Part shown: one piece after another, positions 58,263-61,812 of the stretch | How the letters are laid out: every line of letters begins with the position of its first letter | Position numbering within the stretch: the stretch's first letter is position 1 | Sequence record: NC_027349.1 | From: Escherichia phage HY01 | Reading direction: 5' to 3' (one strand) | DNA: 64,000 bases | Made by a program: the position numbers and the translations under genes | The notes under the pieces: generated by a model | What the model saw: only the letters and a program-made list of their open reading frames with translations | Databases searched by the model: none | Told to the model about the DNA's origin: nothing

Positions 58263-61001
58263 ATGGCTACTTTAAAACAAATACAATTTAAAAGAAGCAA
58301 AACTGCAGGAGCACGTCCTGCCGCTTCAGTATTAGCCGAAGGTGAATTGGCTATAAACTTAAAAGACCGCGTACTTTTTACTAAAGATGACCAAGGAAAT
58401 ATCATTGATCTGGGTTTTGCTAAGGGCGGTAGTATTGACGGGAATGTTATTCATATAGGAAACTATAATCAAACTGGTGATTATACTTTAAATGGCACCT
58501 TCACTCAGACAGGTAATTTTAATTTAACTGGTATTGCTCGAGTAACTCGCGATATTATTGCCGCCGGGCAGATTATGACTGAGGGCGGAGAACTTATTAC
58601 AAAAAGTTCAGGTACATCACATGTTCGTTTTCATGATTCGGCTGATCGTGAACGTGGAATCATTTATGCCCCGGCTAATGATGGATTAACTACGCAAGTA
58701 GTTAATATCCGCGTTAAAGACTACGCCGCTGGTGATGAAAGCACCTATGCATTTTCAGGCAGTGGCCTATTTACTTCACCTGAAGTATCAGCATGGAAAT
58801 CTATGTCAACTCCTCAGATTTTGACAAATAGAGTTATTACTAATAATAAATCTACGAGCGATTATGACATTTATTCTATGGCAGACAACGTTCCATTGTC
58901 TGAAAGCACTACTGCTATTAATCATCTCCGTGTTATGCGCAATGCTGTAGGCGCTGGTGTATTCCATGAAGTTAAAGATAATGATGGAATAACTTGGTAT
59001 ACTGGAGATGGTTTAGACACTTATCTTTGGTCGTTTACCTGGTCCGGTGGATTGAAAGCAGGCCATTCTATTTCTGTTGGTACTCCTGGTGGCAATAAAG
59101 GATACTCTGAATTAGGGACTGCTTCAATTTCTCTTGGCGATAATGATACCGGATTAAAATGGTATCAAGATGGTTATTTCTATGTAGTAAACAATGGTAC
59201 GAGAACTTTCCTTTATAGTCCTGAATCAACCGTAAGCCTTAGAAAAATGGTTATGGGTTATTCTGTAAATGGCAATGATTTGACTACTCCTCCGACTGAA
59301 AACTATGCTTTGGCTACTGTCGTGACATATCACGATAATAACGCGTATGGTGACGGTCAGACTCTTTTAGGATATTATCAAGGCGGTAACTATCATCATT
59401 ATTTCCGCGGTAAGGGTACTACAAACATTAATACTCACGGTGGTTTATTAGTCACTCCTGGTAATATTGACGTTATTGGTGGTTCTGTTAATATTGATGG
59501 TCGTAATAATTCTTCTACACTGATGTTTAGAGGTAACACAACTGGTAGCAGTTCAGTTGATAATATGACAATTTCTGTATGGGGTAATACGTTTACTAAT
59601 CCTAGTGTAGGTAATCGTAAAAACGTCATGGAAATTTCTGATGCAACTAGTTGGATGAGTTATATTCAAAGACTTACTACCGGTGAAGTAGAAATGAACG
59701 TCAACGGTTCATTTGAATCATCCGGTGTTACTGCTGGAAATAGAGGAGTTCACACAACAGGTGAAATTTCATCTGGAGCAGTGAATGCGCTTCGCATTTG
59801 GAACGCAGATTATGGAGCCATTTTTAGACGTTCAGAAGGCAGTCTTCATATTATTCCAACTGCTTACGGTGAAGGTAAACATGGTGATATCGGTCCACTT
59901 CGCCCGTTTAGTATGGCTTTAGATACTGGTAAAGTTACTATTCCAGATTTACAATCAAGTTACAATACGTTCGCAGCAAACGGTTATATTAAATTTACTG
60001 GTCATGGCGCGGGCGCTGGTGGTTATGATATTCAATATGTTCAAGCAGCTCCTGTTTTCCAGGAAATCGATGATGATGCTGTAAGCAAATATTATCCTAT
60101 TGTTAAACAGAAGTTTTTAAATGGTAAAGCCGTTTGGTCTTTAGGTACTGAAATTAGTTCAGGTACATTCGTTATTCATCATCTGAAAGAAGATGGTTCA
60201 CAAGGCCATACGTCTCGTTTTAATCAAGACGGTACTGTTAACTTCCCGGATAACGTTCTGGTCGGCGGTGGCGAAGCTGCTATTGCTCGTAATGGTAACC
60301 AGGAAAATGCTAGCGATCCGCAAGCTATCTTCGAATTCCACCATAATGGAAACATGTACGTTCCTGACATGGTTAAAGCTGGAGTAAGAATATCAGCTGG
60401 TGGAGGTGATCCTGCATGGACAGGCGCATGTGTTGTTATTGGTGATAATGATACTGGTTTAGTCCATGGTGGTGACGGCCGAATCAATATGGTTGCAAAT
60501 GGAGTGCATATTGCTTCATGGTCGGCCGCTTACCAACTCCATGAAGGTCTTTGGGATACTACTGGTGCTTTGTGGACTGAGCAAGGAAGAGCTATTATTT
60601 CTTTTGGTCATTTAATTCAACAAAGCGATGCCTATTCAACATTTGTCCGTGATGTTTATGTCCGTTCTGATATTCGTGTTAAAAAAGACCTTGTTAAATT
60701 TGAAAATGCTTCTGAGAAGCTTTCTAAAATTAACGGTTACACTTATATGCAGAAGCGAGGCTTAGATGAAGAAGGCAATCAGAAATGGGAACCTAACGCC
60801 GGTTTGATAGCTCAAGAAGTTCAAGCTATTTTGCCTGAATTAGTTGAAGGTGACCCTGATGGCGAAGCTTTACTTCGTTTGAACTATAACGGTGTAATTG
60901 GTTTAAATACAGCTGCAATCAATGAGCATACTGCAGAAATTGCAGAACTTAAATCAGAAATCGAAGAACTTAAAGCATTAATTAAATCATTGTTAAAATA
61001 A
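58263..61001 (+). CDS. 37: Long tail fibre distal subunit gp37, T2-type, with C-terminal intramolecular chaperone domain (912 aa)
   Basis: Conserved gp37 N-terminus; C-terminal SDIRVKK Ser-Lys dyad motif plus coiled-coil tail typical of self-cleaving chaperone domains. Confidence 0.85.
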
Positions 61002-61032
61002 TAAGAGGGGCTTCGGCCCCTTGGAGGTTTAT

Positions 61033-61812
61033 ATGGCAGTAGCAGGACCGTGGGTAGGATCGTCTGCAGTAATTAATACAGGACAAAATTGGATGGGTGG
61101 CGCGGCCCAACGATTAAGAATGGGTGCTCCATTTTGGATGAGTAATATGATAGGTCGATCTGTTGAAGTAATTCACACGCTTGGAGCAGACCATAACTTC
61201 AATGGTCAATGGTTCCGAGATAGATGTTTTGAGGCAGGTAGTGCACCTATAGTGTTTAATATTACTGGAGATTTAGTATCATATTCTAGAGATGTTCCTT
61301 TATTCTTCATGTACGGAGATACACCTAATGAATACGTTCAACTGAACATACACGGCGTAACGATGTATGGTCGTGGTGGGAATGGTTGGGCCGCTGGTGC
61401 AATTGGAGCATCTGATGGCGGTGTATGTATCCAGAATGATATAGGTGGACGTCTGCGAATTAATAATGGCGGAGCTATTGCCGGTGGCGGCGGTGGCGGC
61501 GGTGGTTATTCACAAGCCAACAACTGGGCGGGAAAATATGTTTGCGGTGGCGGTGGCGGTCGTCCATTCGGCTTAGGCGGAAATAATGGTGCTCGATGGC
61601 CTGGTGGTAATGCTAGTTTGACGTCTCCGGGTGCTGGCGGTAATACTGGTACAGGGTATTATGCAGGTGGAGGTGGTGAAGTTGGTCAGCCAGGACAATA
61701 TGCTAATCCAGGTTCTGGTTATTCAACACCTCCGACAAATCCTGGTGCTGCTGTAGCAGGATCAGCTCCAACATGGCAAAACGTTGGAGCAATATATGGT
61801 TCAAGAGTATAA
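61033..61812 (+). CDS. 38: gp38 receptor-binding adhesin, T2-type (259 aa from ATG 61033; track ORF starts 61021)
   Basis: Glycine-rich motifs ([20 protein letters not shown]) separating variable segments; position after 37. Confidence 0.8.

Follow-up and report, generated by a model that had tools for sequence, protein, structure and literature searches.

The distal long tail fibre locus of Escherichia phage HY01 raises two questions: which kind of receptor-recognition apparatus it encodes, and why its gene 37 product is so short. The locus occupies positions 58263 to 61812 of a window of 64,000 nucleotides (nt), the whole stretch of DNA analysed here, taken from sequence record NC_027349.1. 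HY01 is described as a T4-like phage from swine faeces (HY01 paper), and belongs together with phage PEC04 to the species Tequatrovirus hy01. We consider it likely, with a probability of about 0.85, that the region is a distal long-tail-fibre receptor-recognition module of the T2 type, with a self-cleaving gp37, an OmpC-binding gp38 adhesin and a derived deletion in the gp37 shaft. The tip architecture is already known, since it has been published for S16, PP01 and T2-type phages, and the locus lies in an annotated genome. The sole new element is the undescribed shaft deletion together with its independent counterpart in phage Ec_MI-02, which we regard as a modest curiosity. The two genes and the parts of gene 37 are located as follows (aa, amino acids).

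58263-61001, + strand: gene 37, long tail fibre distal subunit, 912 aa, 98.3 kDa precursor (AHK11095.1 / YP_009148689.1)
59610-59912, + strand: gp34-like trimerisation domain in the gp37 shaft, aa 450-550 (PF21446, E 8.8e-8; phmmer match to T4 gp34, 4uxe/5nxf, E 4e-12, aa 418-561)
60015-60266, + strand: shaft module A, aa 585-668, intact, homologous to module B of the long forms
60293-60298, + strand: deletion junction with TGGTAA microhomology, 576 bp or 192 aa missing, in frame
60300-60419, + strand: remnant of module B (last ~28 residues) and linker into the tip
60420-60665, + strand: distal tip of the predicted mature gp37, aa 720-801, ending in DVYVR, homologue of the beta-prism of S16 gp37 on which gp38 docks (phmmer, 6f45_A, E 2.8e-43)
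60666-60998, + strand: C-terminal intramolecular chaperone or Peptidase_S74 domain, aa 802-912, 12.3 kDa (PF13884), with Ser802 (60666-60668), Lys807 and a terminal heptad-repeat helix
61033-61812, + strand: gene 38, T2-type monomeric adhesin, 259 aa, 26.1 kDa (PF05268, E 4e-72; PF21721, E 9e-21; PDB 9v85_A and 6f45_D)

The gp37 encoded in the window is identical to the annotated HY01 gp37 at every residue, and is the sole member of its 90% cluster. Comparison of the window with the PEC04 genome (KR233165.1) showed 100% identity over positions 1-49847, 49647-55447 and 55263-64000, and the single difference consists of 576 bp that are absent from gene 37 of HY01. The missing stretch corresponds to residues 680-871 of the 1104-aa PEC04 gp37 (AKN44640.1), with an ambiguity of two residues. 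In PEC04, TGGTAA lies inside a 20-nt direct repeat (family D19), whose copies are identical at 16 of 20 positions and exactly 576 bp apart. Deletion between short direct repeats is a classical route in T4. HY01 and PEC04 were deposited separately, with genome lengths of 166,977 and 167,552 bp, a difference of 575 bp. Both are probably isolates of the same phage lineage.

Close relatives of this gp37 have lengths of 1082-1114 aa, and the range is 1051-1114 aa in 118 out of the best 120 protein clusters. A junction-spanning tblastn search against 50,697 phage records found the two flanks as separate pieces in all of the best 60 records, at a distance of 843-846 nt rather than 270 nt. In a list sampled across the whole tblastn ranking, all records that span both flanks likewise had the two-piece long form. 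The HY01 junction itself gave zero matches, searched as an exact 40-mer and a 20-mer in viral contigs, and as the 20-mer in metagenome and genome contigs. Judged by its relatives, the long form of gp37 is ancestral and the HY01 deletion is derived. A first-pass annotation of the locus, made from the sequence without database searches, gave the length of 912 aa correctly, but T4 gp37 with its 1026 aa was the wrong yardstick for a protein with such relatives. It also missed the cause of the short gp37, the internal deletion relative to the otherwise identical PEC04. In the BLASTP table of the HY01 paper the gp37 alignments cover exactly 679 residues, that is, up to the junction, and the word "deletion" occurs zero times in that paper. 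The literature searched contained nothing relevant on natural internal deletions in gp37, and no paper on PEC04 itself was found there.

Apart from HY01 itself, the only listed relative among the best 120 clusters with an alignment across the whole query was the 900-aa gp37 of phage Ec_MI-02 (OP856590). Its backbone is approximately 88% identical to that of HY01, resembles PP01 around residues 485-500, and has the junction ...NFPDNV|SDPQAI.... Compared with its closest long-form relative, SH7, Ec_MI-02 carries a 627-bp in-frame deletion that overlaps the one in HY01 and has different endpoints, with the crossover in TTCTG, within GAtAACGtTTCTG / GAaAACGgTTCTG. We read this deletion as independent of that in HY01. 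Another group isolated Ec_MI-02 on O157:H7 and made its own, independent assembly (Ec_MI-02 paper), and the tail-fibre passages of its paper do not mention a deletion. A further protein of 1051 aa (P0088, from a Logan assembly) has an in-frame deletion of 53 residues near the N-terminus, at residues 55-107 of the HY01 gp37. In-frame deletions in the shaft of gp37 may not be rare.

The removed segment lies between and within two shaft modules. Module A and module B (residues 807-899 of PEC04 gp37) are homologous repeats according to profile-profile comparison (hhalign probability 94%, E 1e-7), and this relation was visible only at that level, since blastp self-comparison of PEC04 gp37 detected no internal repeats. 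Between both modules are located a helical segment ending in GDTMTG, a common fibre motif, and a nodule rich in beta structure. Conservation along gp37 is lowest within this nodule: at positions 721-744 the commonest residue is shared by only 57% of the sequences, compared with more than 90% for most of the shaft. The HY01 deletion removes the helical GDTMTG neck, the variable nodule and two thirds of module B. Module A is preserved in both phages. HY01 has, in addition, a linker of 14 residues and ~28 residues from the end of module B, and Ec_MI-02 has ~24 residues from that end. The S16-like tip, the stretch that leads into it and the chaperone domain are still present in both. A clean in-register recombination between modules A and B would delete 666 bp (family D2), and was rejected for both HY01 and Ec_MI-02, as neither has it. 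The breakpoints in both phages are out of register with the A/B repeat, so that correct folding of the hybrid shaft is only assumed from the viability of the phage.

The short gene 37 could alternatively be an artefact of assembly or stem from a minority variant of the sequenced lysate, with infectious HY01 carrying the 1104-aa gp37 of PEC04. The HY01 genome was assembled from 454 reads with Newbler, and identity to PEC04 over the rest of the window is what one phage would give; moreover, the junction occurs in no other public collection searched and the 912-aa protein forms a singleton cluster. However, a flanking repeat with 16/20 identity and 6 bp of exact match is too short for an assembler to merge reads several hundred bases long. 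The reading frame is preserved exactly, and an overlapping in-frame deletion with different endpoints was obtained from Ec_MI-02 by another group with another assembly. An artefact is, in our estimation, quite unlikely. HY01 forms plaques on O157:H7 and Shigella flexneri (HY01 paper), and therefore its fibres would work if the sequence is right.

A real deletion still leaves the question of why nearly the same segment was lost twice. A mutational hot spot is not favoured as the cause of both deletions, as gene 37 has 34 direct-repeat families of comparable kind, and the HY01 junction uses one of them. The failure of a hot spot to explain the coincidence, and two independent losses of the same segment, which is also the most variable region of the shaft, would fit a recurrent and selected deletion. 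In that case, loss of the nodule or a shorter distal half-fibre would adjust adsorption or host range in phages that grow on hosts with an O-antigen, O157:H7 and Shigella among them, for example by extension to S. flexneri or by better access past the O-antigen; HY01 and Ec_MI-02 were both isolated or propagated on O157:H7, and HY01 also infects S. flexneri. On the other hand, the Shigella-infecting phages pSs-1, Sfk20 and SH7 carry the long form, the different gp38 type of Ec_MI-02 means that the selective context need not be shared, and host-range data for PEC04 were not found in the literature searched. The coincidence is equally well explained if only the loss of this shaft segment leaves a foldable fibre. 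We consider selection unlikely, and favour a viability filter, in which the deleted segment is a dispensable part of the shaft and was hit twice for that reason.

It has been known from the 1980s onwards that T2 gp37 undergoes proteolytic processing. The first-pass annotation had proposed that HY01 gp37 ends in a self-cleaving chaperone domain with an SDIRVKK motif and a terminal coiled coil. At the level of sequence both parts of this proposal were borne out. PF13884 (Peptidase_S74, "chaperone of endosialidase") matched gp37 residues 802-861 over profile positions 1-57 of 58, scoring 48.8 bits (cutoff 22, E 8.5e-13). SDIRVKK corresponds to residues 802-808 (nt 60666-60686), and places Ser802 and, five residues downstream, Lys807 at the N-terminal edge of the domain. 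The domain forms the extreme C-terminus of the protein and ends in a helical segment; in the last ~30 residues approximately three heptads can be read, with hydrophobic residues I890, L893, I897, L900, I904 and L907 at the a and d positions.

The proposed alignment of the C-terminus with known self-cleaving domains was in agreement with this assignment. With phmmer, gp37 residues 720-912 aligned with S16 gp37 (6f45_A, E 2.8e-43), a trimeric homologue, and the SDIRVKK region stood opposite DLNVS-SDRRIKK. The isolated chaperone domain aligned in a PDB search with the MYRF autoprotease (7dc3), with an ADLRAK motif over the Ser and Lys positions. This PDB sequence search reached only S16 gp37, MYRF and one putative tail fibre; endosialidase and T5 structures were not reached. 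S16 gp37 cleaves itself at DLNVS^SDRRIKK, by which 113 residues are removed (PMC7917993), and in the structure of the S16 tip the gp37 beta-prism forms the docking surface for gp38 (PMC6851490). In HY01, cleavage is predicted between Arg801 and Ser802, with Lys807 as general base, and would yield a mature protein of 86.0 kDa and a released fragment of 12.3 kDa.

The start of gene 38 was placed at ATG 61033, because of the GGAGG at 61024-61028, the MAV... start of homologues and the annotations of PEC04 and AR1; the mechanical list of open reading frames began at TTG 61021 (263 aa). The stop codon is located at 61810-61812. PF05268 matched gp38 residues 45-259 with 243 bits, and PF21721 residues 1-40 with 74 bits (cutoff of 25 in both cases). 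Both gp37 and gp38 hence exceed the curated Pfam thresholds by wide margins, and the features are not due to chance. The parts of gp38 considered below are the following.

61033-61152, + strand: N-terminal attachment domain, aa 1-40, with Trp7, Trp20 and Trp35 (PF21721; the three Trp align with S16 gp38 in phmmer)
61483-61506, + strand: glycine-rich motif 3, eight Gly codons (GGT GGC GGC GGT GGC GGC GGT GGT), aa 151-158, predicted central polyglycine-II helix, equal to S16 151-GGGGGGGG-158
61546-61572, + strand: GGGGGRPFG, a further glycine-rich motif, aa 172-180, with an identity of at least 90% in every relative compared
61645-61725, + strand: loop D (TGTGYY, aa 205-210) and loop E (GSGYS, aa 227-231, with Ser228), both putative receptor contacts

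In S16, one gp38 monomer caps the gp37 trimer through three Trp on its N-terminal helical bundle, and ten glycine-rich motifs, including the helix 151-GGGGGGGG-158, build a polyglycine-II sandwich with hypervariable loops projecting from it (PMC6851490). Whole HY01 gp38 matched S16 gp38 with E 9e-53. A closer match was obtained when the variable segments were compared with adhesins of known receptor, a check that the first-pass annotation had suggested: over residues 37-259, 222 of 223 positions agree with the OmpC-binding gp38 of PP01 in its superfolder GFP (sfGFP) construct (PDB 9v85). The single difference in the crystallised domain is Ser228 (61714-61716) in loop E, where PP01 has Ala228; loop D and Y230 are identical. 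In PP01, Gly208 in loop D and Tyr230 in loop E contact loops 5 and 7 of OmpC(O157), and Ala228 lies in a hydrophobic cleft, where A228V and A228L are tolerated and A228D or deletion abolishes infection; Ser is not among the variants tested (mBio 2026, PMC12892980). Since HY01 gp38 is nearly identical to that of PP01, the most likely receptor of HY01 is OmpC of E. coli O157. The HY01 paper mentions OmpC zero times and does not address the receptor.

The closest receptor-binding domains carry A, S, N or H at residue 228, which plausibly represents a fine-tuning site for OmpC variants. The gp38 of Shigella phage Sfk20 also has Ser228. In some gp38 proteins, such as cluster member P0003, the receptor-binding half is identical to that of HY01, while the N-terminal domain (residues 1-45, 61033-61167) has 62% identity and a two-residue insertion. 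Because the receptor-binding half is identical and the attachment domain is very different, we read the gp37-docking and receptor-binding modules of gp38 as independently exchanged. The reported incompatibility of T2 gp37 with PP01 gp38 fits such an exchange.

The polyglycine tracts of gp38 were described in the first-pass annotation as separators of variable, specificity-setting segments. The alignment of 129 relatives and the structures of PP01 and S16 confirm that the glycine-rich motifs separate hypervariable loops, which has already been published. The tract coordinates had been given correctly, apart from a DNA string of 23 letters quoted for a 24-base interval, which is trivial; the second tract comprises five Gly codons at 61546-61560 (gp38 residues 172-176). 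Insertions and deletions were surveyed in the 14 members of the 90% cluster and in 129 cluster representatives down to ~42% identity. Among the 14 close relatives, indels are limited to the N-terminal domain, with two inserted residues, and to loop D, where one residue is affected, and the tracts of eight and five glycines are unchanged. In the 129 representatives the columns of residues 150-160 and 171-181 were free of gaps and insertions, and the indels cluster at 121-126, 162-168, 185-189, 205-208 and 225-229, which correspond to loops.

The same annotation had also suggested that the tracts are contingency loci, where replication slippage, or recombination, alters gp38 and switches the host range. 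The tracts are indeed GC-rich (GGY)n runs in an AT-rich genome, with 53% GC in the receptor-binding part of gp38 versus 36% in the window, and a naive count of Gly-run length spans 4-9 across the family. This length variation, however, results from substitutions at flanking positions. All 14 close relatives and S16 have exactly eight glycines at 151-158, and the repeat is impure, as GGT and GGC alternate and the codons differ synonymously among HY01, AR1 and Ec_MI-02 at fixed counts of eight and five. Moreover, two crystal structures show the tracts as polyglycine-II helices with a fixed length, and an out-of-frame slip would destroy the adhesin. Slippage was rejected, and we regard such a switch as extremely improbable; tempting as the idea is, the alignment of the relatives removes it. 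The recombination part of the suggestion stands, although it had been published before: in many relatives, identity to HY01 gp38 is 66-100% up to residue 150, 100% in the eight glycines and 0-15% in the next loop. Conserved motifs as recombination joints have been described by Tetart et al. 1998 and Trojet et al. 2011 (cited in PMC12032242). We interpret the Gly tracts as conserved scaffolds constrained in length that also act as recombination joints, and not as contingency repeats.

All features named by the first-pass annotation, i.e. the 912-aa gp37, SDIRVKK, the 259-aa gp38 and the polyglycine tracts, were found where it had placed them, and its reading as a T2-type module is in agreement with the order g36-g37-g38-t and with the matches of gp38 to PF05268 and PF21721. 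On the features that can be read from sequence, the fibre tip is of the T2/S16/PP01 type, with all defining features of Peptidase_S74 and of the gp38 adhesin family present. Several points weigh against our reading of the locus. The deletion comes from a single 454/Newbler assembly, and its junction is unique to HY01 in the collections searched. It is also not a clean domain excision, as module B would be cut after its third predicted strand. The only model available to judge the hybrid fold is too poor for that purpose: an AlphaFold2 (AF2) monomer model of BP32 gp37 residues 561-992, built with a 24-sequence alignment, had a predicted local distance difference test (pLDDT) of 50 and a predicted template modelling (pTM) score of 0.32, and only its secondary-structure string was used, cautiously. 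Such low values are expected, because an intertwined trimer was modelled as monomer. At the tip, Ser228 replaces Ala228 of PP01 at a position critical for infection, and the details of receptor binding may differ. Five major bands, including three phage tail proteins, are reported for the HY01 virion, with names and sizes not given in the accessible text of the HY01 paper.

The genes around the locus and the candidate transcription signals are located as follows.

52539-56411, + strand: g34
56420-57535, + strand: g35
57539-57560, g35/g36 gap: hairpin GAGGGAGCC-UUCG-GGUUCCCUU with T-run, just before the late promoter motif at 57567
57567-57574, + strand: TATAAATA, a motif of the T4 late promoter type at 24 nt upstream of g36, where late transcription of g36-g37-g38 likely begins
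57598-58254, + strand: gene 36, proximal connector of the distal half-fibre, 218 aa (Pfam PF03903 Phage_T4_gp36, E 4.8e-29; PEC04 and AR1 annotations agree)
61005-61021, + strand, g37/g38 gap: hairpin AGGGGC-UUCG-GCCCCU, minimum free energy -17.8 kcal/mol, z -2.4, ending 2 nt before the g38 Shine-Dalgarno sequence GGAGG
61843-62499: holin gene t, directly after g38

The gene order g36-g37-g38-t falls within the canonical T-even late tail-fibre block, with g37 and g38 adjacent on the + strand, and the Pfam search of the window proteins confirmed gp36, gp37, gp38 and holin T. The HY01 paper gives the coordinates 154263..157001 for HY01_0240 and 157033..157812 for HY01_0241, with an offset of 96000 relative to the window. 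The motif TATAAATA has 17 matches in the window versus 9 expected by chance, and its assignment as late promoter follows from the established T4 consensus. Exact motifs are present at 52497-52504, just upstream of g34, and just upstream of g36, and the motif search of the window found none directly upstream of g37 or g38. Because TATAAATA precedes g36 and neither g37 nor g38 directly, its distribution suggests that g36, g37 and g38 are co-transcribed. The hairpin between g37 and g38 lacks a T-run on the + strand, and for this reason is not a classical terminator. Both UUCG-tetraloop hairpins are GC-rich and intercistronic, and look like the highly stable C(UUCG)G hairpins known first from T4 mRNAs.

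Taken in order, genes g36, g37 and g38 would be expressed late, probably from TATAAATA at 57567. Trimerisation of gp37 would be aided by its own C-terminal Peptidase_S74 chaperone domain, which would then remove itself by a cut after Arg801 catalysed by Ser802 and Lys807. The cut would expose the trimeric beta-prism tip, on which one gp38 would dock through the Trp7, Trp20 and Trp35 of its N-terminal helical domain. The C-terminal half of gp38 would form the polyglycine-II sandwich, with the Gly tracts as rigid core and the hypervariable loops between them in contact with the receptor. By near identity to PP01 gp38, loops D and E would engage OmpC of E. coli O157. The 576-bp in-frame deletion would have formed at the short imperfect direct repeat and spared the N-terminal joint, the docking tip and the chaperone domain, with a shorter but working fibre as the expected outcome. 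Roughly estimated from the residues per nm of T4 fibres, the distal half-fibre of HY01 would be about 10-13 nm shorter than that of PEC04.

Elsewhere in the window, at ~41380-44550 (PEC04 96297-99465, PEC04_0173 to PEC04_0175), the large subunit of the aerobic ribonucleotide reductase is encoded as two coding sequences of 1434 and 990 bp. According to the PEC04 annotation table only, a putative homing endonuclease gene splits them. This looks like a gene in pieces or an arrangement with an intron and homing endonuclease gene.

HY01 has been promoted as a phage for food biocontrol, and the 192-residue deletion in its main fibre for host recognition went unnoticed in its paper. Its gp37 is atypical, and caution is advised in its use as reference or as base for engineering. 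The near-isogenic pair HY01 and PEC04, with Ec_MI-02 as independent replicate, is usable for studying the role of the nodule and of fibre length in adsorption. If the deletion were selected, HY01 and PEC04 would be a natural isogenic pair, as far as the 64 kb compared, in which the function of the shaft, as opposed to that of the tip, is directly measurable.

The closest known system for the deletion is PEC04, with 100% nucleotide identity over the 64 kb outside the deletion and an identical gp38, which differs in retaining the 576 bp (residues 680-871). Ec_MI-02 resembles HY01 in the in-frame loss of essentially the same shaft segment at a short microhomology, and also comes from O157:H7; it differs in endpoints, deletion size (627 bp), gp37 backbone and gp38 type (264 aa). 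For T4, Hyman, Valluzzi and Goldberg reportedly described in PNAS in 2002 that engineered internal deletions in gp37 give shorter, functional fibres. The likeness to HY01 is that internal segments of the gp37 shaft would be removable without loss of assembly or infectivity. The T4 deletions were engineered in a gp37 that itself binds the receptor, whereas those in HY01 and Ec_MI-02 are natural and lie in a T2-type gp37.

The tip is best compared with the gp37-gp38 tip of S16 (PDB 6F45; Dunne et al. 2018), which has a trimeric gp37 tip followed by a self-cleaving chaperone, with the SD-R-KK motif aligned, and a monomeric gp38 with three docking Trp, eight glycines at 151-158 and a polyglycine-II sandwich. 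It differs from HY01 in the residue before the scissile Ser (Arg in HY01, Ser in S16), in the gp37 tip at aa 750-790, which diverges between conserved ends, and in the gp38 loops, which diverge to such an extent that the match (E 9e-53) is not near identity. The C-terminal domains of K1F endosialidase, T5 pb1 and MYRF share with HY01 a Ser-x4-Lys dyad at the start of a domain ending in a helix; for K1F endosialidase and T5 pb1 this likeness comes through the Pfam family and established knowledge, while S16 gp37 and MYRF were significant in the PDB search. PP01 gp38 with OmpC (9V85) is the nearest relative of the adhesin, with the 222 shared residues and the same numbering for G208, Y209 and Y230. 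Its gp37 has 1109 aa and a long shaft, and residue 228 is Ala in PP01 and AR1 and Ser in HY01. The gp38 of AR1 differs from that of HY01 at 7 positions, including 208 and 228.

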